The notes below the pieces were generated by a model. That model was given only the letters and a program-made list of their open reading frames with translations, did no database searches and had not been told where the DNA came from. This document shows, piece after piece, positions 7,463-19,628 of a stretch of 64,000 bases of DNA. The DNA is from Promethearchaeota archaeon. Lineage in GTDB: Archaea; Asgardarchaeota; Lokiarchaeia; Sigyniarchaeales; SOKP01. The stretch's first letter is position 1. Each line of letters opens with the position of its first letter. Made by a program: the position numbers and the translations under genes. The stretch lies in assembly GCA_048940445.1 (NCBI GenBank), contig JBHLON010000001.1, positions 128,001 through 192,000 of the forward strand. Direction: 5' to 3'.

Positions 7463-8239
7463 ATAGAAACAACAAGAGTATTAGATTTAATATTTAAAAT
7501 CCTTTTATTGTCAATTGGGATTATCTTTGATATATTTATAATGTTATTTTGCAATGATTATACATATTTGGGCAGAGTATTATTTTCCACGGGTATATTT
7601 ATTGGGCCTACTTGCACTATTTTTGGAATTTCTTTCTTATTGCCTAGTAAGCACTCTGTTAGGATCTATTGGGTTATTATTGGATGTTTGATTGGTGCAG
7701 GTTCGATATATTTGGGTACTTACTTCTTAGTTAATTCATTTTTCAAAATACCTCAATATGCTTACTCTATCTTACCTTATCTTTTGTACATTATACCATA
7801 TATTCTTCTAGTAGGGGGAACACTTTTAATTATAGGTGCTCCATTAAATTTTGCAAGAAATTCGAAGAAGATAAGGAAATTGGACTCATTGTCTCAAGCA
7901 GATTTAGTTAATTTGTTCAGCTGTCCCAAATGTGGAACAATTGGTGCTATTTACTTTGTAAAGCCTGTTAAAGATCAACTTTTAGTAAAACAAAAATGTC
8001 CCTATCATGGAGGAAGACTTTTTAAACTCCCAATAAGATTAAAAGATGATTCAATTTCCCACTTCCAGGATGCTATATTTCGTTGTCTTAAATGTGGACA
8101 AAGGGCTACATCTTTTCACGTAAAATATTCATTACCTTGGGCTTTAATTACAGTAGATTGCCCAACCCATGGATTGAAAACCTATAAAATATGGTACACT
8201 GTCTACAGTGAAATTTCTGAAGGGATAATTGAGCGTTAG
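7463..8239 (+). CDS. Membrane protein (about 4 TM) with two C-terminal CxxC...CPxH zinc-binding repeats
   Basis: CPKC...CPYH and CLKC...CPTH. The ORF track starts at TTG 7508, but the frame is open to ATA 7463, 6 nt after AGGTGA. Confidence 0.7.
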   Translation: METTRVLDLIFKILLLSIGIIFDIFIMLFCNDYTYLGRVLFSTGIFIGPTCTIFGISFLLPSKHSVRIYWVIIGCLIGAGSIYLGTYFLVNSFFKIPQYAYSILPYLLYIIPYILLVGGTLLIIGAPLNFARNSKKIRKLDSLSQADLVNLFSCPKCGTIGAIYFVKPVKDQLLVKQKCPYHGGRLFKLPIRLKDDSISHFQDAIFRCLKCGQRATSFHVKYSLPWALITVDCPTHGLKTYKIWYTVYSEISEGIIER

Positions 8240-8301: not shown

Positions 8302-9057
8302 CTACTTTACTAACTGTTTTAACATGACAAATTCAGCTTTTTTAGATAGAGTTTCCCTTATAAAACTTTTAAATCGATATAAGAACATATCTCCCGTATT
8401 AATCCATCTATCAGGTCTAAAAAGAGCGTTTTTCAAAATATCTGAAAGTTCGATTTGATTAAACAATAATGATCTCATCTCTATTGCCTCCCAAGGGTGC
8501 ACGTATAATACTAATAACTCTTTTTTATATATCCACTTACGTAAAGGAGAATAACTCAAGGGTAATCTAAAAATTATATTTAAATTTGGATGGAATTCTT
8601 GAATTTCTCCATTAATTCCATGAGAATTTTTTAGTATATGGATTGAATTATGATTTATTGAAGAATCATATTTAAATCCCTGATTCTTTAAAATAATAAA
8701 TAAATAATTTGGAACCTTTAAATAAGGAGCTCTAAAACCTATAATTTCTGAACTTTGAGAGACTTTTTCAAGAATCTTTTTGTTTTGAGTTATTATTTCT
8801 TCACATTCTTCAAAATCCAACTTGGTTAGTCTCTCGTGATTTAAACCATGACACGCAATCTCATGTCCTTGACGAATAATTAACTTTATATATTTTGGCA
8901 AACGATTAGCGATATTTCCAGTACAAAAGAAAGTTCCTTTAATATTGAAATCATCTAAAATCTTAAGTATTTTTACCAAACCGAATTCTATCCCAAAAGA
9001 TGTATCCAAAACATTAGGTATATCCCGTTCAATATCAAAAGTTAAAGCAATTTTCAT
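8302..9057 (-). CDS. Polysaccharide deacetylase (CE4/NodB fold)
   Basis: LTFDIE, GTFF, HEIACHGLNH, GFRAP, YDSS and YVHPWE motifs. Confidence 0.9.
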   Translation of the reverse strand: MKIALTFDIERDIPNVLDTSFGIEFGLVKILKILDDFNIKGTFFCTGNIANRLPKYIKLIIRQGHEIACHGLNHERLTKLDFEECEEIITQNKKILEKVSQSSEIIGFRAPYLKVPNYLFIILKNQGFKYDSSINHNSIHILKNSHGINGEIQEFHPNLNIIFRLPLSYSPLRKWIYKKELLVLYVHPWEAIEMRSLLFNQIELSDILKNALFRPDRWINTGDMFLYRFKSFIRETLSKKAEFVMLKQLVK

Positions 9058-9108
9058 TATTGTAATCTTTTATAGTAATTTTAGCTTAAATTATTCTGTT
9101 TATTTAAA

Positions 9109-9876
9109 TTATTCAATTTTCTTAGCTAAATCATGATAAATGTCTTTATTGGAATAATATTGGTGAACTCGTCTAAGGCTTCGTTTTACAGTTAAATTAC
9201 GACCACTAGTTAATACAGAAATGAACGTCAATGTTTTAATTTTTCCTTTCTTCAATTTACGAATTAAATATATCAGAGAATCCGAAAAAACTTTATCAAT
9301 TCCTAAAGAATATGGTGGTTGTTTAAATCCACCCGATTTAAAGAAAACATCTCTTCTAACAATCATATTAGTTCCAGATAATTCAGGATATCCAAATAAA
9401 CTTTTACAAAAATAGTATAAATGGCTCCCGAGATTTTGAAAAAAGTATTTAGTTATTGTGTATTTTGGGGTTCCGATATTAAATGAAAAGGCAATCCCGT
9501 CATAATATTTTATCCGAGCACTGCAAGCAAAAAGATTTTTATTTTTGTTAAAGATATGATATATTTTTTGTAAAAAGTAGGGGCCTATTAGTGTATCAGC
9601 ATCTAAAAACAACAAGATATCTCCAGATGTTTTCTGTGCAGCATAATTTAACTGATGAGTCTTTCCTTTTTTAGGTGATACAAATACTTTTGCAAAATTT
9701 TTAGCAATTAAAACTGTTTTATCAGTACTTTGTCCATCACTTACGATAATTTCATAAGGAAAATTACAAATTTGTTTTTCAACAGCTAACAAAGTTTCTT
9801 TTATTAATTTTTCCTCATTATAAGCCGGGATCACTACTGATATTTTGGGATTATGCAACTGGTTAATTGCCTTCAT
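9109..9876 (-). CDS. Glycosyltransferase family 2 (soluble)
   Basis: SVVIPAYNEE, DGQSTD, FLDAD and TSGR motifs. Confidence 0.9.
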   Translation of the reverse strand: MKAINQLHNPKISVVIPAYNEEKLIKETLLAVEKQICNFPYEIIVSDGQSTDKTVLIAKNFAKVFVSPKKGKTHQLNYAAQKTSGDILLFLDADTLIGPYFLQKIYHIFNKNKNLFACSARIKYYDGIAFSFNIGTPKYTITKYFFQNLGSHLYYFCKSLFGYPELSGTNMIVRRDVFFKSGGFKQPPYSLGIDKVFSDSLIYLIRKLKKGKIKTLTFISVLTSGRNLTVKRSLRRVHQYYSNKDIYHDLAKKIE

Positions 9877-9979
9877 TTTATTTTATATAAAGTAGAATGA
9901 TTATTATACTTTAATTCATTCATTTGAGAATATATGATTTTGCAATATTTAATATGAATTTAATTTTAAAATTTGAGTA

Positions 9980-11074
9980 GTGACAAAAATGAAAAAAGCA
10001 TTTATAATACCCTTTCTTTTTCTTATCTTTAGTTCTACACTTCTCATTTTATTCATATTGTCACGTTTGTTTTTCTCAATTCCTTGGATTAACATCCTAT
10101 ATGACTTTATAAGACCTTGGATGGCTCTGATTTTTTACAAATATAATATATATATCTATGGTGGAATTGTAATCTGTTTTGTTGCTTTATTACCTTTATT
10201 TGTTTTAGGATATAATATAGCAAAGTCTAATCAATTACTTGGTTCAATTATATATATTTTTAGTTTATTGGGTTATGTAGTAATTATCTTATTAGCTTCC
10301 TTATTCACATATTTCAGTATTCTATTCAATGAACAACTAACAATCAATACTAGATTAATGCTATTTCTCCTTTTTTTACCAGTAAATTTTACGATAACTC
10401 TAATTCTTTTTTTAGTAAACATCGATTTCTACCTTTTTTTAAAGGATTTGATGAAGGCTAGAAAAGTTTGGAAACATAAAAAACCTGAGTTTGAGGTCGT
10501 CGAGAAAGGTAAAATGACTTATATTAACATTGAAACCGATGAATTTATTTTTACTCCTGTACCAATGTTAATAATCGCAAAACATCTTCAGCAAAAGCGA
10601 TATTCTATTGCTTGGTTTGTAAAGGGAGCATTTAATCATTTATTTTCACTTGTTATTTCATACTTAATTGGGTGGCCGACAGCCAGAAATATGTTATTTC
10701 GCTTCTTAGGAATGAAAATAGGTAAAAATTGCCATATTTCGCAAAAAGCTATACCTGATCCCTTATTACCAGATTTAATTGAATTTGAAGACGGGAGTGG
10801 GTGTGGGATTGGTGTAAAGTTGTTGACTCATAATGCAATGAATATTAAACATGGAAGCTTCAGTTTTGGACCTATCAAAGTCTGTAAAAATGCGAGAATA
10901 GGAGCATATTCTATTATTCTCCCCGGTGTCACAATTGGTGAAGGATCTATTATAGGGGCTCATTCTGTTGTTGCAGAAGATATTCCACCATATAGCATCG
11001 CATTGGGATCTCCAGCGAAGGTTATCAGGGAATTAACAGAAGCCGAAAGAGAGGAAGTAAATAAGAACTATTGA
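9980..11074 (+). CDS. Membrane-bound hexapeptide-repeat (LbH) acyltransferase
   Basis: About 4 N-terminal TM segments, then GMKIGKN, LLTH, IGAYSIILPGVTIGEGSIIGAHSVV and GSPAK. Confidence 0.85.
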   Translation: MTKMKKAFIIPFLFLIFSSTLLILFILSRLFFSIPWINILYDFIRPWMALIFYKYNIYIYGGIVICFVALLPLFVLGYNIAKSNQLLGSIIYIFSLLGYVVIILLASLFTYFSILFNEQLTINTRLMLFLLFLPVNFTITLILFLVNIDFYLFLKDLMKARKVWKHKKPEFEVVEKGKMTYINIETDEFIFTPVPMLIIAKHLQQKRYSIAWFVKGAFNHLFSLVISYLIGWPTARNMLFRFLGMKIGKNCHISQKAIPDPLLPDLIEFEDGSGCGIGVKLLTHNAMNIKHGSFSFGPIKVCKNARIGAYSIILPGVTIGEGSIIGAHSVVAEDIPPYSIALGSPAKVIRELTEAEREEVNKNY

Positions 11075-11075
11075 A

Positions 11076-11858
11076 TTATTTCTCAATAAACTTTTCAATT
11101 AATTCATTTATCTCTTTATGATTGTCAACCATGACTCTATGCGTTCCATTATCAATAACAATCATTTCTGAATTCGGGATTAAATCCTTTAAATTATTAA
11201 GCATTGATTTGTCAATAATTTTGTCTTTATTTCCGTAGATTATAAGAGTTGATTGATGAACTATTAAGTTTTTATTATATAAATGATATTTTCTTGTCAT
11301 ATTTTTAAATGTACTTAAAACTATTGATTTGGGTAATTTTAGGGCATTTAAGTACAGTTTTTTAAACTCAGTATTATCATTTGTATTCGAAACTATTTGG
11401 TGAACAATAGATTTTAAAAATTTTTTATAGAGGATTTTAAAAATTAAATTTACCAAAAAGAGTATTATTTTATCTTTATAAGATGACGTGAATGAAGCAC
11501 TTGTACTAATTAAAATTAATTTTTTTACTAAATCCTTATTTTTTATGGCAATATTTAATGCAATCATTCCCCCTAAAGAATGGCCTACTAGTATAACTTC
11601 ATTATATCCTATAATTTTAAGAAATTCTAAAATTTGATTTGAAAAGAACTCTATAGAGTATTTGGTATTTGGTTTACTTGATTTACCAAAACCGGGTAAA
11701 TCTAATATAATAATATGTCTTTTGGAATTAAAATAGCATATTTGATAAATCCATTCATTTGAACTTCCTAACCAACCATGTATAAATAAAATGGGAATAC
11801 CTTGAATAGTATTTTCAGAATAAAAAATTTTTAAATTAGTAATACTAACAAATGGCAT
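11076..11858 (-). CDS. Alpha/beta hydrolase
   Basis: FIHGW, DLPGFGKS, GHSLGG nucleophile elbow, catalytic D (GNKD) and H (GTH). Confidence 0.9.
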   Translation of the reverse strand: MPFVSITNLKIFYSENTIQGIPILFIHGWLGSSNEWIYQICYFNSKRHIIILDLPGFGKSSKPNTKYSIEFFSNQILEFLKIIGYNEVILVGHSLGGMIALNIAIKNKDLVKKLILISTSASFTSSYKDKIILFLVNLIFKILYKKFLKSIVHQIVSNTNDNTEFKKLYLNALKLPKSIVLSTFKNMTRKYHLYNKNLIVHQSTLIIYGNKDKIIDKSMLNNLKDLIPNSEMIVIDNGTHRVMVDNHKEINELIEKFIEK

Positions 11859-11871
11859 TATTGTTTAACTT

Positions 11872-12903
11872 TTATTTTAATATATTTTGATAGATAAAAT
11901 TTCTAATAGGATGTTTAACAAAATTAGAAGGATTCCAATAACAAGGTTTAAAACAGTTGCAGTAATCAAATTTAAACGCTTTGACTGTTTTGACTCGTTT
12001 CTTATGATGTAATGTAATAAAATCATTAAATTGAATATTAGTATTTACATCTTCACAGAGCATTACGGAACCATCATTATCTATTGAGTAATATAAATCT
12101 CCAGCATCGCAATTCCAATAGCTTCCTTTTTGATACCATTTATTCATGTAATAATAATAGATATTCGGGGAGAAAATTTGGATACCTAATCTTTTGAGAT
12201 TTTGAATTGTTTTCCTTAATCTCTCCATTTGTTCTTTCTTTAACAATAAATCAGGACAATAATTTCTATATTGATATTCTTCAGAGGGCTTTAATGATGA
12301 GTGAACAGGATCTATTGAAAATCGACAATCTATTTTTGAATTGATAATTTTTATTAGAGGAATAAGCCTTTGTATATTCTTTTTAGTAGGTACAATATGA
12401 ATGCAATAATCAATATTATCAGGATACTTCCTTTTTATGTTATGAAGTAATTCAAATAATTCTGGACGATATCTTTTCGGACTAAAACTTGTTTCTCTTA
12501 AATCATCAATACTAATTCCTAAAAGGAAGTAACCATATGACGCAAATTCTTCAAGTAAAGGTTCAGATAATAAAGTACCATTAGTAACTACATGAGTGAA
12601 TGTATTTAAATTTATACAATATTTCAAAAGTTCCCCTAAGTCTGATCTAAGGGTGGGTTCTCCTCCATATATTGTAATAAACCTGCATCCTTGATTATAA
12701 ATTTGATTTATTATTCTCTTCCATTGATTTAACGATATATCTGCTTTTTGATTTCTTTTTGAAGCAGCACAATAATTACAATCAAGGTTACACTTCCTAG
12801 TAAAAAATAGGCTAACGAATACAGGTCCTTTTATTATTCTAAAAATTCTCTTTAAATAACTGACTCCAACTTTTCTTAAAATGGTGTTTTTTTTATTTGT
12901 CAT
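11872..12903 (-). CDS. Radical SAM protein with C-terminal twitch/SPASM-like Cys region
   Basis: CNLDCNYC, GGEP, TNG; C-terminal CDAG...GSVMLC...CNCFKPC. Confidence 0.9.
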   Translation of the reverse strand: MTNKKNTILRKVGVSYLKRIFRIIKGPVFVSLFFTRKCNLDCNYCAASKRNQKADISLNQWKRIINQIYNQGCRFITIYGGEPTLRSDLGELLKYCINLNTFTHVVTNGTLLSEPLLEEFASYGYFLLGISIDDLRETSFSPKRYRPELFELLHNIKRKYPDNIDYCIHIVPTKKNIQRLIPLIKIINSKIDCRFSIDPVHSSLKPSEEYQYRNYCPDLLLKKEQMERLRKTIQNLKRLGIQIFSPNIYYYYMNKWYQKGSYWNCDAGDLYYSIDNDGSVMLCEDVNTNIQFNDFITLHHKKRVKTVKAFKFDYCNCFKPCYWNPSNFVKHPIRNFIYQNILK

Positions 12904-12958
12904 CTTTAAATTTTCTTAATCGAATGATTAAAATAAGTAAATATACTAAAAAATATTA

Positions 12959-13948
12959 ATGACTCAAGTTTTGCAACCAGTGTCCATTGTTGTTCCTATA
13001 AAAAATAGGGGTAATTTTCTTCCCAGTTTAATTAAAAATCTCCAAGATTTAAATTATCCAAAATATGAGATCATTATTGTTGATGATGGATCAACAGATA
13101 ATACAAAAGATTTATTAAAAAAGTCTCAGATCAAATCAATTTTACTAACAAAATCGGTTGGATCTGCGGAAGCAAGAAATCTAGGGATTAGGCAAGCAAA
13201 ATACAAAGTTATCGCTCTTACAGACTCAGATTGTTTTGTATCAAGAAATTGGTTAAGAAACTTAGTTCCATTTTTAAATAAGTATGATATAGTTGGGGGT
13301 AAGGTCTTATTTTGCGATAAATCTGAACGAAAATTAAATCCATTTAGTCAAAATGATGAGGTAATCATACGTAAAGATTCAAATATTAATTTTCTTAATA
13401 CAAGTAATATGTTATTAAAAAAAGATGTTTGGAACTTAGCAGGTGGATTCCTAAGTTATAGAATTGAAGATTTAGAATTTTCCTGGAGATCTATAAAAAA
13501 AGGATTTAAATTAATCTACGTTCCAAAGGGCTTAGTAATTCATTATGGAAAAAGAAATCCTCTTCAAAATATTAAAAAATATTTTCATTATGGGAAAGCT
13601 TATTCAGAAATTGTATCAATCCATAAGATGGAATTTATATTTAAATCAGAGCCTATTTTTAATTCTAAATCAATTAGAGACTATATTCCAATAATAATCT
13701 ATTCAAATGTCGTATTCTTAGTGTTTTTTATAAGTGGTTTTTTCCTTTTTAATAAGATATTTGGATTTTCATTTTTAAACGTTGCATCCTTTCTTTTTGT
13801 TTATTTATTTTTTCGATTCATAATAAAAGTTGATGTAATTTACAAATTATATAAATTTAGTATCACATTTAGCATAATATTATATACTCTAATCTATATG
13901 CTAAAAAATAAGAAAAAAAGAAGACAGTTTAATAAAGCCAATCAATAA
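12959..13948 (+). CDS. Glycosyltransferase family 2 with C-terminal TM helices
   Basis: SIVVP, DDGSTD, ARN, TDSDC and ED motifs; hydrophobic C-terminus. Confidence 0.88.
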   Translation: MTQVLQPVSIVVPIKNRGNFLPSLIKNLQDLNYPKYEIIIVDDGSTDNTKDLLKKSQIKSILLTKSVGSAEARNLGIRQAKYKVIALTDSDCFVSRNWLRNLVPFLNKYDIVGGKVLFCDKSERKLNPFSQNDEVIIRKDSNINFLNTSNMLLKKDVWNLAGGFLSYRIEDLEFSWRSIKKGFKLIYVPKGLVIHYGKRNPLQNIKKYFHYGKAYSEIVSIHKMEFIFKSEPIFNSKSIRDYIPIIIYSNVVFLVFFISGFFLFNKIFGFSFLNVASFLFVYLFFRFIIKVDVIYKLYKFSITFSIILYTLIYMLKNKKKRRQFNKANQ

Positions 13949-15239
13949 TAGAGGAACAACTTTTACCTTGTACGTTTTTTAATCGTCCAATGATTCTAAA
14001 AGTGGCACCTTCATACCCACATTCTGGACAATTCTTTTTTGAAATAAGTTCTACAATATCATCGACTAGAACCGCTTGATTAATGCTTCCATTCACACCA
14101 TATGGCGTAATTACTTCTAGAAGGCCCTCCATTCCATCATTAACTGGTTCTAGACTTTCTATATCTCTTACTATAATCCTAGATGTATCTGGACAATGTA
14201 ATATGAAATCTTGATATTTTTCAGACCAATGCCCTCCAAAAAGTGTAGGTCCTTCAGTGAATGCATAAATATCAGCTATATCCTTTGGCTTGATATTAAA
14301 AACCTTTTCATAATTTTGAATAAACCTAAGTTTATCAACAGCATTTAATTTTGCCTCCCCTTTAACTCCATCCCATCCTCCTCCACCACAACCAACGAAG
14401 GACATACCATCAAGATCATAAAAAATATTTTCCTTCAATAATCTATTCTCAAACATATTATTCATTAATAGAGGACTCCCACCAAATAATAATTTGCATA
14501 CTTCAGTATTTTTCCATTGATTTGTTTTCACAATTTTTTTTATTATTTTTAACATTCTGCTTACATCTACGATGAAACCACCTTTCATTGAAAGAGTTGA
14601 CAGAATCGCCCAGATTGTTTTTAAAAATTTGGCTTTTACCATATATTCCTCAAAACCATAGTATTCCCATGGTTTATTCATACACGCCGTAAAGTAGCGT
14701 GTCTTTTTAACATATTCAAACCCTTTAACATTTTTTCTTGCCATCATTGCCATTAAGAAACGTCCAGGTGCAAAGTTAAAGATAACGCTCTTCTTATTTT
14801 CTGTTCTTAAATCTTTCCACCTGAAAAATTCATTAAATACTTTAATTGAATTATATTGGATTTGATCGAAATCTTCTAGTGTACGAGGGACTATAGAAGG
14901 ATCTCCTGAAGTAGAAGAAGAACATGAAAAAAGAACTATATCATCTAGAGGTACTTTTAGCAGGTTTAGAGTTCGGTTCTCACTTTTTTTATATAAATCT
15001 GAAGGGATATAGGGAATATTATCCAGATTATTACTATTTATTTCATCAGGAATGGAAAAGTCGAACTTTTTACACAGATCTTCTCGATAATACCTACAGT
15101 TACTATAAGAGAATTTTATTTGTTCTAAAACATCATTATAAAATGTCTTATCCGAATATTGATGCAATTCTGAATCAAAATATTTTCTCTTCAGTTCTTT
15201 GGGTAAATAATCATGTACTTTATATTTCAAGAAAATCAC
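13929..15239 (-). CDS. LuxE/PaaK-like acyl-protein synthetase (ANL-related)
   Basis: IPYIP, SSSTSGDPS (variant of SSGTSG), GGGW, YAFTE, GLLEVITP, DD, FRIIGR and terminal GKSCS resembling the LuxE acyl-Cys region. Confidence 0.78.
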   Translation of the reverse strand: MIFLKYKVHDYLPKELKRKYFDSELHQYSDKTFYNDVLEQIKFSYSNCRYYREDLCKKFDFSIPDEINSNNLDNIPYIPSDLYKKSENRTLNLLKVPLDDIVLFSCSSSTSGDPSIVPRTLEDFDQIQYNSIKVFNEFFRWKDLRTENKKSVIFNFAPGRFLMAMMARKNVKGFEYVKKTRYFTACMNKPWEYYGFEEYMVKAKFLKTIWAILSTLSMKGGFIVDVSRMLKIIKKIVKTNQWKNTEVCKLLFGGSPLLMNNMFENRLLKENIFYDLDGMSFVGCGGGGWDGVKGEAKLNAVDKLRFIQNYEKVFNIKPKDIADIYAFTEGPTLFGGHWSEKYQDFILHCPDTSRIIVRDIESLEPVNDGMEGLLEVITPYGVNGSINQAVLVDDIVELISKKNCPECGYEGATFRIIGRLKNVQGKSCSSIIDWLY

Positions 15240-15247
15240 ATTATATA

Positions 15248-15272
15248 AAAAAACCAGTCTAGTTGGTTTTTT
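15248..15272. terminator. Short inverted repeat flanked by A/T tracts between the GT2 and LuxE-like genes
   Basis: aaaaaacca-gtctagt-tggtttttt. Confidence 0.3.
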
Positions 15273-15348
15273 AATTGATTATAATAATTTTAGTCTATTT
15301 TTATATATATTCCCTCTTAACTAAAATAAAAAGAAAAAAGAAAAAGTT

Positions 15349-16701
15349 TTATTTTGTAGATAAAGCTATTATTTCAGCTTCTTGTTTTTCAAATAACATA
15401 GGAGTTTTTTCCCAACTTAATTCCTTTGGAAGTTTAAATTGACGTAAAAACATGTATAAATGAATATAACCACTAATTAGAAAGACTAGCAAAACACTGT
15501 AATGTTTATCGCCATACTTTCTAATAGCATTGAATAGATAGCCAAACATAAAAAGTAGACAAGAAGTACTCCAAATTAGTAAATAATATTCCCCAATTAG
15601 AAAGAAAAGGACCATAAATCCAATGACTATAGGAATCCAAGTATCTATATTCCCTATTAACATCATTGTCATATTTCTCGCGATAATTAAAGATTTGCCA
15701 TTTTTATGCTCGCTTTTCATTGCCATCAACTGAGGCATATCAAAAATAAACCCTGCAAGCCATCTTGTACGTTGTTGAGTTAATATTTCCCATGTACTTG
15801 GTACATATTCGTAAATTTTAGCTTTAGGAGAAAAGAGTATTTTAACTCCGTCTAAGTTTAAAAGTACAGATAAATAAAGATCTTCAGTCATAGAATCTTC
15901 ATTAAAACCTCCATATTTCCTTAAAAATTTAGTTCTAACAGCAAAATTTCTTCCGAATGAATAAGCTGAAGACCCCAACCGATTTTTAATTTCAAAAAGC
16001 AAACCTCCACCCGAAACCATAGCATAATCAAGAAGAATTCCTCGGGTTAAATTATTTTCTTTCCAATTTTTAACTAACACTGGTCCTATAACCGCATTAT
16101 TGTTATCATTTTGAAATGGTGAAATCAAATCTTTTAGGGTATCTGGTTCTAAAATACAGCCTGAGTCATAAAGTAGAACGATATCGTGTTTGACATATTT
16201 TAAACCATAATTCAAAGCTGGAGGTTTACCCTTCTTTGCTAAGCTATCTGATAACACCTCAATATCTATCATATTGTATGTCATAGCAAACTTTTGACAA
16301 AACTCTGTTGTATCGTCTGTAGAACCACTTGTGATTATGATTATTTGGATATTTTCTTTTGGATAATTTGAATTAACAATAGATGTTAATGTTCTTTCCA
16401 GAAGGATTCGCTCACTTTTAGAGGCAATCATTATGCTTATTTTTGGATAATAAGTTGTTTTAGTCTTATAACCACTTCCAAATGAGGCTAAAAAGTGAAT
16501 TCCATAATAAAGAAGCAAGCCCCATATCATTACAAGCCCTATTAAAGGAAATATAAACCACCAATAAGTTAAAGGATCAGTAAAGAAGGCATTAATAGAA
16601 TCTCTTACGCCTGAAGTCCAGAAAGATGGAAAGTATATATGGAAAATAACATATAAAACTACCAAAAAGAACCCATATAATATGATTTTTGACATTTTCA
16701 T
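15349..16701 (-). CDS. Integral-membrane GT2 (cellulose/PNAG synthase-like signature)
   Basis: KPPALN, TED and QRTRW (QxxRW) motifs; TM segments at both ends. Confidence 0.88.
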   Translation of the reverse strand: MKMSKIILYGFFLVVLYVIFHIYFPSFWTSGVRDSINAFFTDPLTYWWFIFPLIGLVMIWGLLLYYGIHFLASFGSGYKTKTTYYPKISIMIASKSERILLERTLTSIVNSNYPKENIQIIIITSGSTDDTTEFCQKFAMTYNMIDIEVLSDSLAKKGKPPALNYGLKYVKHDIVLLYDSGCILEPDTLKDLISPFQNDNNNAVIGPVLVKNWKENNLTRGILLDYAMVSGGGLLFEIKNRLGSSAYSFGRNFAVRTKFLRKYGGFNEDSMTEDLYLSVLLNLDGVKILFSPKAKIYEYVPSTWEILTQQRTRWLAGFIFDMPQLMAMKSEHKNGKSLIIARNMTMMLIGNIDTWIPIVIGFMVLFFLIGEYYLLIWSTSCLLFMFGYLFNAIRKYGDKHYSVLLVFLISGYIHLYMFLRQFKLPKELSWEKTPMLFEKQEAEIIALSTK

Positions 16702-16722
16702 TGAGAATCACGTTTTTATTTT

Positions 16723-17673
16723 TTATTTTAATACTCCATTTTTTTTATCCATTTCCTTTAATCCTTTATAGATGTATCGCCCAAATGGTATTACTGATAT
16801 GACCATAATTATAAATAAACTAATTTGAAAAATAAACATTGTCCATGTAGTTATCCATGTATGAACCGATGCCCATATTGTTGTACTAGAGGGATTGATT
16901 AAATATGTAATCAACATAGTTAGACTTGAGACTCCATACATTGCAAAAAATGTAGCAGTTACCAAAAATCGAGTAATTCTTTCACCTATAAAGGGCTTTG
17001 TTTCCTTCATTCCTAAACCTTCATGTCTCGCTCTCATATATTCATAAATAAAAATAAGGAATATATTTGTCCATACTATCCATCTAAAATTAAGACCATA
17101 AGCATTTATAATCATATAATTGGCGGGAATTAAGCATACAAACATAAGTATATCACAAATTCGATCAATTACATTATCTAACCAAGCACCTCGTTTTGAT
17201 TTAATGTTTAGTAAACGAGCTATAGCCCCATCAATTCCATCAATAATACCCGTAAAAAGTACCAATATTGCCAAAGGAAGAAACCATGCACCATAAAAAG
17301 GTTGTTCAGAGAATAAGTTAACACCAGGTAAAGTCCCGTCCCCAAGCATAACAACACAATAAAAGATTAGGAAGGATAAAATTAAATTCATAAAAGAAAC
17401 TTTATTTGGAGTTAATCCCCACCTTATGAAGATCTTTGCCCCTCTATATGTTATTGGCATATAAATCTTTCCAGAAGGGTCTTTTTTCATTTTGGTAAAA
17501 TAATCTTCTAACTTGTGAGCTGATCCATGATCTCTAATCCAATCTTTAATGAAGTCATCTAAACTCATAAATTCTTGATTTGGTTTCCTATTAGGAATTC
17601 CACTAATTAAAATAATTATAAGTAACAATATCAAAATTAATGGAAATATTACTTCGAAAATAATTTCTGTCAT
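16723..17673 (-). CDS. CDP-alcohol phosphatidyltransferase
   Basis: TPN plus the full signature DGIDGAIAR-x8-G-x3-D-x3-D (GAWLDNVIDRICD); YMRAR and ER motifs. Confidence 0.92.
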   Translation of the reverse strand: MTEIIFEVIFPLILILLLIIILISGIPNRKPNQEFMSLDDFIKDWIRDHGSAHKLEDYFTKMKKDPSGKIYMPITYRGAKIFIRWGLTPNKVSFMNLILSFLIFYCVVMLGDGTLPGVNLFSEQPFYGAWFLPLAILVLFTGIIDGIDGAIARLLNIKSKRGAWLDNVIDRICDILMFVCLIPANYMIINAYGLNFRWIVWTNIFLIFIYEYMRARHEGLGMKETKPFIGERITRFLVTATFFAMYGVSSLTMLITYLINPSSTTIWASVHTWITTWTMFIFQISLFIIMVISVIPFGRYIYKGLKEMDKKNGVLK

Positions 17674-17906: not shown

Positions 17907-19628
17907 CTGGAAATTGATGATAATCTAAAAAATAATACTTCTGTTGCTTATATATCAATGGAAATAGGTTTAGATTCTAATATCCCAACTTATAGTGGTG
18001 GTTTAGGAGTACTATCAGGAGATACAGTAAGATCTGCTGCTGATTTAGAGATCCCAATGGTAGCAGTTTGCCTATGTTACAGTTCAGGATACTTTTTTCA
18101 ATTATTTAATGAAGCTGGTGAACAAAAGGAAAAAGAAGTCGAATGGAATTTTTTCTATGAATTTGATAAAGTTGAGAAACCCATTTCTGTTAAAATTGAG
18201 AATCGAGAAGTTAGGGTCTCTGCATGGCTTTACAAAGTCATTGGTCAATCAGGTCATGTTTTACCTGTCTATCTTCTTACAACTGATGTTGAGGGAAATG
18301 AACCATGGATGAAAAAGATGACAGGATCTCTATACGATTCAACTTCGCGATGGAATCGCATTGTCCAAGAAATAATCCTTGGAATTGGTGGTGTTCGCCT
18401 CCTAAACTCCCTAGGATATGAAAATATTAAAACTTATCATCTTAATGAGGGTCATGGAAGTTTTGCTTCAATTGAATTATATAATATGTATAAAGGGGAC
18501 ATTGAAAAGATTAAGTCAAGTGTTGTTTTTACTACTCATACACCTGTAGCTGCTGGACATGATAGATTTGATCAAAGTTTGGTAACTAAAGTTTTTGAAA
18601 ATAGAATTCCTGAACGAATTCGAAAGTTTGGTGAGGATAATGGGCAATTTAATATGACATTTTTGGGGATGAACCTCTCAAGATATCGGAATGCAGTTTC
18701 AAGAAAACATGTTGAAATAACTAAACAAATGTTCCCAAAATATGAAATTGACTATATTACAAATGGAATTCATTTACCCTTCTGGGTATCAAAACCATTT
18801 AGAAAAATGTTTGATAGAAAGTTTCCTAATTGGAAGGCAAACCCATCTTTACTGCAAAATGCAATCGAGTTAGATGATCTAGATGTTTTCGATGCTCACA
18901 TTAAAAATAAATTCAATCTTATTAGCTATCAAAAGGGCCATTCATGGAATTTATTAGATGAAGAATTAATAACAATCGGTTTTGCAAAAAGATTTGCTAC
19001 TTATAAAAGAGGTACTTTAATTTTCCATGATATTGATAGATTAGGAAAAATCTGTAAGGGAAGTGTACAATTTATATTTGCAGGTAAGGCTCACCCTAAA
19101 GATGAAATGGGGAAGGATTATATCAAGAAAGTTTATGAATCAGGCAACTATTTGTATGATAACTATGGAGTTAAAGTCGTTTTAATGGAGAATTATAATA
19201 TGGATTTAGCACATATGTTAGTTTCAGGGTGTGATGTTTGGTTAAATACTCCTGAAAGATATCGTGAAGCAAGCGGTACTAGTGGCATGAAAGCAGCATT
19301 AAATGGTGTATTAAATTTCAGTATTCAAGATGGATGGTGGTTAGAAGGTTATAAAAAAAATGCTTTATCAGGATGGGCTATTGGGCCTAATGATCAAAAT
19401 CCAAAAGATCCAGGGATCTCTAATAATTGGGACATTGATTCGAAAGAAATTTATAAGATTTTAGAGAACAGTATAATTCCAACCTATTTAAATCATGACG
19501 AGTGGCTATTTAAATGTAAAAATGCAATATCACTAGCTGCTTACTTCAATACGCATCGTATGATTGAAGAATACGCTGAAAAAGCCTACAAATTAAGAAA
19601 ACAAAGACCTTGGAAATATTTTGAATAA
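17907..19628 (+). CDS. glgP: Alpha-glucan (glycogen/maltodextrin) phosphorylase, GT35
   Basis: YSGGLGVL, HLNEGH, FTTHTP, RFATYKR and the PLP motif EASGTSGMK. The conserved VAYISMEIG motif starts upstream of ATG 17958, so I place the start tentatively at CTG 17907. Confidence 0.9.
   Translation: MEIDDNLKNNTSVAYISMEIGLDSNIPTYSGGLGVLSGDTVRSAADLEIPMVAVCLCYSSGYFFQLFNEAGEQKEKEVEWNFFYEFDKVEKPISVKIENREVRVSAWLYKVIGQSGHVLPVYLLTTDVEGNEPWMKKMTGSLYDSTSRWNRIVQEIILGIGGVRLLNSLGYENIKTYHLNEGHGSFASIELYNMYKGDIEKIKSSVVFTTHTPVAAGHDRFDQSLVTKVFENRIPERIRKFGEDNGQFNMTFLGMNLSRYRNAVSRKHVEITKQMFPKYEIDYITNGIHLPFWVSKPFRKMFDRKFPNWKANPSLLQNAIELDDLDVFDAHIKNKFNLISYQKGHSWNLLDEELITIGFAKRFATYKRGTLIFHDIDRLGKICKGSVQFIFAGKAHPKDEMGKDYIKKVYESGNYLYDNYGVKVVLMENYNMDLAHMLVSGCDVWLNTPERYREASGTSGMKAALNGVLNFSIQDGWWLEGYKKNALSGWAIGPNDQNPKDPGISNNWDIDSKEIYKILENSIIPTYLNHDEWLFKCKNAISLAAYFNTHRMIEEYAEKAYKLRKQRPWKYFE

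Follow-up and report, generated by a model that had tools for sequence, protein, structure and literature searches.

Nine genes at positions 8302-17673 of a 64,000-nucleotide stretch of DNA from a Promethearchaeota archaeon (GenBank assembly GCA_048940445.1, contig JBHLON010000001.1, positions 128,001-192,000; the whole stretch is referred to here as the window) form an island that is a real, dedicated and co-inherited gene set of one uncultured Lokiarchaeia family. On balance, with little more than even confidence, we read this island as encoding the assembly, on the cytoplasmic face of the membrane, of a phospholipid bearing N-acetylhexosamine (HexNAc), or of a lipid-primed short glycan, that would be de-N-acetylated and then re-acylated. 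The window belongs to contig C101 of a 3.64 Mb assembly that is 93% complete. Its nine genes and a possible tenth member are listed below with their Pfam matches, which were judged against gathering cut-offs; NCBIfam matches were judged against the curated equivalog cut-offs.

16723-17673, minus strand: gene 9, CDP-alcohol phosphotransferase (CDPOH), 316 residues; CDP-OH_P_transf PF01066, 48.2 bits against 22
15349-16701, minus strand: gene 8, integral-membrane, cellulose-synthase-like GT2 (GT2syn), 450 residues; Glyco_tranf_2_3, 106.9 bits
13929-15239, minus strand: gene 7, soluble LuxE/PaaK-type adenylate-forming, acyl-protein synthetase-like enzyme (LuxE), 436 residues; PF04443, 94.6 bits against 24.9
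12959-13948, plus strand: gene 6, GT2 with a C-terminal transmembrane (TM) hairpin (GT2tm), 329 residues; Glycos_transf_2 PF00535, 105.5 bits; optional module C
11872-12903, minus strand: gene 5, radical SAM enzyme with a C-terminal auxiliary Cys cluster, twitch/SPASM-like (rSAM), 343 residues; PF04055, 82.3 bits; optional module C
11076-11858, minus strand: gene 4, alpha/beta-fold hydrolase or acyltransferase (ABH), 260 residues; Abhydrolase_1 PF00561, 123.8 bits; optional module C
9980-11074, plus strand: gene 3, membrane-anchored left-handed beta-helix acetyl/acyltransferase (LbH), 364 residues; Hexapep, 38.2 bits; module B
9109-9876, minus strand: gene 2, soluble GT2 (GT2s), 255 residues; PF00535, 99.8 bits; module B
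8302-9057, minus strand: gene 1, leaderless CE4/NodB-fold de-N-acetylase (CE4), 251 residues; Polysacc_deac_1 PF01522, 71.1 bits; module B
7508-8239, plus strand: possible tenth member, polytopic protein with two CxxC...CxH zinc-ribbon units, 243 residues; no Pfam match

A preliminary description of this DNA had proposed nine genes of these families, and the open reading frame (ORF) listing agrees: the interval is filled by exactly nine ORFs, with gaps of 1-110 nt and one convergent pair overlapping by 20 nt, all of them above the Pfam gathering cut-offs and with catalytic motifs intact. They are disposed in five apparent transcription units, comprising genes 9-8-7 (minus), 6 (plus), 5-4 (minus), 3 (plus) and 2-1 (minus). 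All nine proteins belong to known superfamilies, and none reaches any NCBIfam equivalog cut-off. Hydropathy analysis assigns CDPOH, GT2syn, the N-terminal half of LbH and the tail of GT2tm to the membrane, and CE4, GT2s, LuxE, rSAM and ABH to the soluble fraction. Rfam found no RNA elements in the window, and a scan for sigma-70 promoters and terminators, ill-suited to archaea, gave only the background level.

Conservation and modularity of the island

We mapped the nine proteins by tblastn onto stretches of about 50 genomes of the class and onto 78 further loci. Rather than being scattered, the genes recur together in many genomes, in the same order and beside differing flanks, and the homologous loci show 56-93% identity and no internal stops. 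All nine genes with differing flanks are found in at least four genera. The order is kept beside other flanks in L015, L016, L029, L037, L055-57 and L060, and loci of other genera with all nine genes in order are L029, L037, L056, L057, L060, L083, L085, L086, L089, L093 and L104. Three genomes (G012, G018 and G068) have all nine genes, other flanks and two extra genes. Two congeners (G017 and G019) say little, because the whole block and its flanks are shared. In a genome of a distant family (G060), homologues of GT2s, GT2syn, CDPOH, CE4 and LuxE and a B12-radical-SAM gene lie within 10 kb at 26-49% identity, and a 40% homologue of GT2s adjoins GT2syn.

The "nine-gene cluster" of the preliminary description is a real conserved set, in which the number nine belongs to one architecture of a modular island. 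Module composition was assessed in 44 loci with a CDPOH orthologue, where the counts are minimum values, as contigs often break off within the island. The anchor, CDPOH-GT2syn, is adjacent and on the same strand in 42 of them, with gaps of 18-28 nt, and a LuxE-type gene, usually next after the anchor, is present in 34. The LbH/GT2s/CE4 block (module B) occurs in 25-28, GT2s accompanying LbH in 27-28, and the optional GT2tm/rSAM/ABH module (module C) in 12-13; GT2tm itself is found in 12, nearly always with rSAM and ABH. Loci that have no LuxE orthologue (L027, L028, L031, L040 and L058) carry a LuxE paralogue of 33-38% identity between CE4 and GT2s.

The distribution of the island was assessed in one draw of 151 genomes of the class, of which 126 belong to family f1 and 13 to its sister family. 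Within f1, CDPOH orthologues occur in 55 genomes (~44%) and LbH orthologues in 53: about 50 genomes have both, five CDPOH only, three LbH only and about 68 neither, and the genomes with one of the two mostly reflect contig ends beside the gene or weak paralogue matches. CDPOH is patchy within genera (14 of 39 and 23 of 50 genomes), and the 13 sister-family genomes yielded neither orthologue. The sister family includes two closed genomes, of 4.4 and 6.0 Mb, which by their sizes are probably those of the cultured Prometheoarchaeum and Lokiarchaeum. The qualitative picture is that of an accessory island, patchy in distribution, that is gained and lost as a unit. NCBI labels of bins that share one GTDB genus with this genome (loci L073-L121) conflict, including Promethearchaeota, Hermodarchaeota, Hodarchaeota, Thorarchaeota and Heimdallarchaeota, and name-based taxonomic tallies for the island would therefore mislead.

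The islands of relatives contain extra genes, including three tandem B12-radical-SAMs and zinc-ribbon membrane proteins. One B12-radical-SAM enzyme, encoded between GT2s and CE4, is nearest to HpnJ (TIGR03471, 137 bits against 577.6), and another scores 271 bits with a "lipid biosynthesis" B12-radical-SAM model. A recurrent neighbour of 470-480 residues was considered as a flippase and rejected, being a B12-radical-SAM enzyme. In this genome, contig C85 (349-4448) carries three tandem B12-radical-SAM genes resembling the triple inside the island of other genomes.

The cluster had also been described as bounded by unrelated genes, which needs amending for the upstream gene at 7508-8239. Its homologues, at 41-75% identity, adjoin CE4 or sit within the island in G017, G019, G011, G014, G034, G150 and G072, and because they occur within the island elsewhere, this gene may belong to it. 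Other zinc-ribbon membrane proteins (~190 and ~260 residues), unrelated to the 7508-8239 product, flank LuxE and CDPOH in many relatives. At the other end, a short glycogen-phosphorylase-like protein (17958-19628, plus strand, 556 residues) is encoded beside CDPOH here and in two congeners. Loci L108 and L109 have a glycogen-phosphorylase-like gene directly beside a LuxE orthologue, without CDPOH and GT2syn, which may reflect regional synteny or a functional link.

In two genomes (G011 and G014) the nine genes are split between GT2tm and LuxE by an insert of 10-12 kb, and the same insert lies between LuxE and the LbH block in a third (G034), where the stretch that was read lacks GT2tm, rSAM and ABH. 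All three had been considered as trio-only loci, an assignment that was rejected, wider stretches showing all nine genes in G011 and G014. The insert encodes a putative sulfotransferase, B12-radical-SAMs, two rSAM-SPASM proteins, an ABBA aromatic prenyltransferase (PF11468), U32 proteins and SCP2; the sulfotransferase of relatives' islands is NoeE-like by a weak match. ABBA-prenyltransferase orthologues are present in 24 of the 126 family genomes, 23 of which are island-positive, with the two loci usually within 5-15 kb of each other. In this genome the ABBA/U32/SCP2 operon is on another contig (C119:1-8700), ~40 kb from a LuxE paralogue, and in the distant families f3 and f4 (L050-L052) CDPOH/GT2syn and a LuxE-like gene are separated by a U32 gene. 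Loci L017, L022, L023 and L070-L072 also represent this operon.

Enzymes of the island

Ahead of its 6-TM core, CDPOH carries one more TM helix at the N-terminus and ~60 soluble residues, and its signature D-x2-DG-x2-AR-x8-G-x3-D-x3-D is complete (DGIDGAIAR LLNIKSKR G AWL D NVI D). It is a divergent paralogue, the fourth in the genome besides a serine-type enzyme and two that are AIPS-like (142 and 153 bits). Its best NCBIfam match is archaetidylinositol-phosphate synthase (AIPS; NF040950, 69.7 bits against a cut-off of 180), with NF045883 at 52 against 170, and its best PDB sequence matches are AF2299, the nearest, PIPS and DIPPS. The acceptor may be inositol-1-phosphate; the only indirect sign of this is the motif Y-x-RAR-x-E, which CDPOH has in common with the two AIPS-like paralogues and RsPIPS and which is absent from the serine-type paralogue. 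The genome also encodes one MIPS.

GT2syn, which starts 21 nt downstream of CDPOH, has two N-terminal and about three C-terminal TM helices. Its further Pfam matches are Glyco_trans_2_3 (74.6 bits), Glyco_transf_21 (36.2 bits) and Chitin_synth_2, and its best NCBIfam match is PgaC (TIGR03937, 96.4 bits against 422.3). Across 22 homologues the motifs TED and QQRTRW do not vary. A C-terminal QF.LP...W..T stretch after the last TM helix is also invariant, and DxD is reduced to DSG. An AF2 model (pLDDT 87) has the cellulose-synthase-like, membrane GT-A fold, with hyaluronan synthase, the non-processive PcManGT and BcsA as best PDB folds at TM-scores of ~0.5. Ceramide glucosyltransferase is another non-processive enzyme with a fold of this type, so that the fold alone cannot decide the processivity of GT2syn. 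Close homologues of GT2syn, like those of LuxE, come only from metagenome bins of uncultured Promethearchaeota (Lokiarchaeia, including Helarchaeales). That GT2syn and CDPOH are so constantly paired in an operon fits a dedicated phospholipid anchor or primer.

LuxE retains a set of residues that are invariant across 16 orthologues and paralogues: an SS.T P-loop, GGGGW, TE.P, HWS, DD, CxxCG and a C-terminal G-x-x-CSS. The cysteine of the last motif, C428, lies nine residues from the C-terminus and is kept in every orthologue and paralogue. LuxE orthologues are confined to Lokiarchaeia metagenome-assembled genomes, a protein atlas search with LuxE gave LuxE-domain clusters of Archaea only, and a search of PDB sequences gave no match. 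The LuxC reductase family PF05893 was not found in this 93% complete genome, and control genomes gave matches. Two further LuxE paralogues (32-38% identity) are encoded at C119:48085-49260 (L026:9565-10749) and C131:63052-64260 (L025). The first overlaps a GNAT gene and adjoins genes for an enoyl-CoA hydratase and a 3-hydroxyacyl-CoA dehydrogenase, neighbours that give a weak hint of acyl substrates; the second has genes for an MFS transporter and an ABC permease in its vicinity. An 8.7 kb contig labelled Bathyarchaeia (L122) has a LuxE-like gene (37%) adjoining a B12-radical-SAM gene and an LbH homologue (34%), the only association of these three seen outside Asgard archaea. A 112-residue ORF antisense to the 5' end of LuxE (14924-15262, plus strand) has no Pfam match and is probably not a gene.

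In module B, LbH has four to five N-terminal TM helices ahead of its LbH domain, and its best NCBIfam match, heptaprenylglyceryl-phosphate O-acetyltransferase (76.9 bits against 300), is followed by galactoside and maltose O-acetyltransferases. GT2s has a DxD motif (LDADT). CE4 carries TFDIE, HGLNH, RAPY and VHP and scores below cut-off with the XrtA-system deacetylase (94 against 276) and NodB (58 against 240). It begins at the catalytic TFDIE, without a TM helix or signal peptide, and the upstream gene is only 51 nt away; being leaderless, with no room for a leader peptide, it is predicted to be cytoplasmic. PDB sequence matches were generic for LbH, CE4 and the two small GT2s.

Module C comprises GT2tm, rSAM and ABH. 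GT2tm has TM segments at residues 245-291 and is nearest to MftF among NCBIfam models (125 bits against 280). rSAM has the CX3CX2C motif CNLDCNYC and a C-terminal Cys cluster, and C38/C42/C45 together with C265, C283, C315, C317 and C321 are invariant in 15 orthologues. Its nearest NCBIfam model is the PTO1314 family (72 bits against 306), and it scores 59.7 against 265 with MftC. Its fold neighbours SuiB, PqqE, SkfB, viperin, DesII and BlsE, from a weak model (pLDDT 65), span RiPP maturases as well as viperin, DesII and BlsE and indicate no substrate. ABH, encoded 13 nt downstream of rSAM, has a GHSLGG nucleophile elbow and falls below cut-off with the O-acyltransferase OlsI (58 against 385 bits) and BioH (83 against 207); the LuxD family PF02273 is not among the 14 alpha/beta-hydrolase Pfam families that it matched at E<=0.01. 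Three tandem alpha/beta hydrolases with 24-25% identity to ABH are encoded ~70 kb upstream, outside the window (C101:59693-62228).

A proposed pathway and its rivals

Beyond the observed gene content, motifs, predicted topology, adjacency and co-inheritance, we infer substrates, an order of steps and a product as follows. The divergent, AIPS/PIPS-like CDPOH would link a phosphorylated polyol, of the inositol-phosphate type, to a CDP-activated donor that is most likely CDP-archaeol, yielding a dedicated lipid anchor. The co-transcribed GT2syn would use a UDP-sugar to attach a single HexNAc or a few such residues, and might subsequently move the product across the membrane. The leaderless CE4 would take off the N-acetyl group, upon which LuxE would adenylate a carboxylic acid, load it onto its own C-terminal cysteine and pass the acyl group to the freed amine or to a hydroxyl. 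GT2s would lengthen the glycan and the membrane-bound LbH would O-acetylate it. In this genome the optional module could contribute a further sugar step (GT2tm), a radical change of the sugar or head group (rSAM) and an acyl-transfer or esterase step (ABH).

The predicted topology favours a lipid-bound substrate. CE4, the ATP-dependent LuxE, GT2s and the acetyl- or acyl-CoA-type LbH domain are all predicted to be cytoplasmic. With tailoring enzymes that use ATP or acyl-CoA and have no leaders, the substrate should therefore be at the inner face after the GT2syn step, which follows the logic of Nod-factor, lipid A and hopanoid head-group synthesis and departs from that of poly-N-acetylglucosamine. 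An inner-face substrate favours a lipid-bound mono- or oligosaccharide over a polymer that is exported as it is made. The repeated occurrence of a LuxE-type gene together with CE4 fits removal of the N-acetyl group followed by re-acylation. The preliminary description had proposed a dedicated lipid or glycoconjugate pathway; the co-inheritance and conserved adjacency bear out a dedicated set, and the genes leave both a lipid and a lipid-primed glycan as candidate products.

A narrower version of this reading is conceivable, if on present evidence unlikely: some Lokiarchaeia may synthesise an archaeal phospholipid with an N-acylated glucosaminyl (inositol-type) head group, by steps that parallel, without homology, those of the glycosylphosphatidylinositol (GPI) anchor, the phosphatidylinositol mannosides (PIMs) and Nod factors. 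The acyl group would be a fatty acid or, in genomes that have the ABBA/U32/SCP2 operon, a prenyl-aromatic acid made anaerobically, and a carrier-free acyl-protein synthetase of the LuxE type would load it. A link between the island and fatty-acylated Asgard lipids is only a possibility.

Several points weigh against our reading. The substrates proposed for the nine proteins are conjectural, and none of the nine reaches an equivalog cut-off. Neither a flippase nor an acyl carrier or transferase partner for LuxE was identified, and the island appears to be missing from cultured relatives. Nearly all genomes of the class encode MIPS, so that its co-occurrence with the island tells little about the acceptor. 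Four island-positive genomes (G021, G072, G119 and G129; 92-99% complete) gave no MIPS match, which weakens the case for an obligatory inositol-phosphate acceptor. The co-occurrence counts overstate statistical support, because related genomes are not independent samples, and we give no P-value for them. Finally, the nearest curated family of GT2syn, PgaC, and its nearest folds are processive polymer synthases, which leaves room for a polysaccharide.

That polysaccharide is the strongest competitor, although we consider it unlikely: a secreted or capsular exopolysaccharide resembling poly-N-acetylglucosamine (PNAG) or chitin, for which GT2syn would be the processive HexNAc polymerase and translocase, CE4 would deacetylate in part, LbH and LuxE would attach O- or N-acyl groups, and CDPOH would contribute a phospho-alcohol decoration or just a lipid primer. 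Its appeal comes from PgaC/IcaA as the best curated match of GT2syn, with Chitin_synth_2 and NodC matched too, from hyaluronan and cellulose synthases as the top structural matches, and from the invariant QF.LP...W..T stretch, which we take to be possibly gating-loop-like. The set of GT2, CE4 and membrane acyltransferase also parallels IcaA/IcaB/IcaC, and module variation among close relatives is typical of surface polymers. However, PgaC membership is far off at 96 against 422 bits, and tailoring by a CE4 with no signal peptide or TM helix and by a LuxE that needs ATP would take place in the cytoplasm, while PgaB and IcaB work extracellularly. We know of no CDP-alcohol transferase in synthase-dependent exopolysaccharide systems, yet CDPOH is the most constant partner here (42 of 44 loci), and the island contains no PgaA/D-like, Wzx/Wzy or ABC export genes.

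Rather improbable, in our judgement, is that the island forms the glyco-phospho-acyl half of a larger locus resembling those of secondary metabolism, in which an aromatic acid, prenylated, hydroxylated and methylated without oxygen by the ABBA/U32/SCP2/radical-SAM operon, would be activated by LuxE and joined to the de-acetylated amino sugar, a logic resembling that of the aminocoumarins (prenyl-hydroxybenzoate amide ligase) or moenomycin. The ABBA/U32/SCP2/SPASM operon inside three islands, the island in all but one of the 24 ABBA-positive family genomes, the U32 gene between CDPOH/GT2syn and the LuxE-like gene in L050-L052, and the operon of this genome, near a LuxE paralogue on C119, all point that way. 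However, an ABBA orthologue is missing from over half of the genomes with the island, which thus works in the operon's absence, and in this genome the two loci are on separate contigs. The nested distribution could mean a shared mobile region and not a shared product, and the proposed chemistry is conjectural.

Assembly of a lipid-linked oligosaccharide for N- or O-glycosylation of proteins, with GT2tm as a dolichyl-phosphate sugar synthase, seems very improbable to us. The GT2 proteins do match AglJ, AglG, dolichyl-phosphate hexose transferase and DPM synthase weakly, and the C-terminal TM hairpin of GT2tm is like the topology of polyprenyl-phosphate glycosyltransferases. However, every Agl match is far below cut-off, the island has no oligosaccharyltransferase, flippase or phosphosugar-initiating transferase, CDP-alcohol transferases and LuxE play no part in known archaeal N-glycosylation, and the island is an accessory, patchy trait. 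A chance neighbourhood of unrelated genes, which the mixed strands and five transcription units might suggest, is hardly credible, being contradicted by co-inheritance and by order and content conserved across genera with different flanks.

Relation to known routes and significance

The preliminary description had not recognised the combination as a known pathway and had set it apart from the lux, hopanoid and mycofactocin systems; all equivalog scores are far below cut-off, and the island falls within none of the three. By analogy, it appears to work like the HpnI/K/J, NodC/B/A and PIM routes and partly like the PNAG route, and is a member of none.

The hopanoid head group is built by HpnI, HpnK and HpnJ from bacteriohopanetetrol (BHT) via N-acetylglucosaminyl-BHT and glucosaminyl-BHT to the cyclitol ether. 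The likeness lies in a QxxRW membrane GT2 that attaches HexNAc to the head group of a lipid, a deacetylase in the cytoplasm that exposes the amine and then, in relatives, a B12-radical-SAM enzyme for remodelling of the sugar. However, GT2syn reaches only 38.9 bits with HpnI (TIGR03472, cut-off 310), the relatives' B12-radical-SAM is far below HpnJ, and the window has no HpnJ-like gene. The island deacetylase is CE4 and not of the HpnK type, the CDP-alcohol transferase, LuxE and LbH have no counterpart in that route, and the organism makes no hopanoids.

The Nod-factor route (NodC/NodB/NodA/NodL) is similar in its cytoplasmic short HexNAc synthesis, leaderless CE4, re-acylation of the amine and LbH-type O-acetylation. 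It differs in that GT2syn and CE4 are far from NodC (TIGR04242, 39 against 550 bits) and NodB (TIGR04243), that LuxE-type adenylation stands in place of acyl-ACP and NodA, and that the island includes a CDP-alcohol transferase; NodA (PF02474) gave no match in this genome and likewise none in any control genome. The mycobacterial pgsA1-patA-pimA operon encodes a phosphatidylinositol-phosphate synthase (PIPS), an acyltransferase and a mannosyltransferase for acylated PIMs. It too places a PIPS-type CDP-alcohol transferase beside a glycosyltransferase and an acylating enzyme, whereas the island has a membrane GT2 in place of GT4 and LuxE-type in place of PlsC-type acylation, and its AIPS score is 69.7 against 180. 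The resemblance to the early steps of the eukaryotic GPI pathway (PIG-A/PIG-L/PIG-W) is an analogy only, GT2 and CE4 standing against GT4 PIG-A and LmbE-type PIG-L.

Like PNAG synthesis (PgaABCD/IcaADBC), the island combines a membrane GT2 of PgaC/IcaA-like type with a CE4 deacetylase and a membrane-bound acyltransferase, but its CE4 is cytoplasmic, PgaA/D and IcaD are missing, and CDPOH, LuxE and GT2s have no counterpart there. GT2syn resembles the processive BcsA, hyaluronan synthase and chitin synthase GT2 enzymes in its TED and QQRTRW motifs and membrane-integrated GT-A fold, its DxD being reduced to DSG. The likeness to LuxCDE consists of a LuxE domain above cut-off, invariant motifs for adenylation and an equally invariant cysteine some nine residues before the C-terminus; unlike in lux, no LuxC was found in the genome, there is no LuxD-type transferase or luciferase, and the partners are glycan and lipid enzymes. 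From mycofactocin synthesis the island is separated by the scores of GT2tm with MftF and of rSAM with MftC.

No published description of the cluster was found in the literature searched. The combination of head-group transferase, amino-sugar transfer, de-N-acetylation and ATP-dependent acylation was likewise found neither in a characterised pathway nor in that literature, and the island gives a functional context to orphan LuxE-family enzymes. It is an accessory, frequently exchanged pathway, and ~44% of the sampled genomes of one Lokiarchaeia family have it. If its product is a surface glycan, the island would be a candidate determinant of cell-cell or virus interaction. If it is an acylated glycophospholipid, the island would provide a testable gene set for "mixed" acyl/isoprenoid Asgard lipids and target masses for sediment lipidomics. 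For models of eukaryogenesis, a central gap concerns the construction of the membranes and surfaces of Asgard archaea, the nearest relatives that eukaryotes are known to have; should the product be an N-acylated phospholipid, the island would be the first gene-level route for an Asgard acyl chain on membrane lipids.

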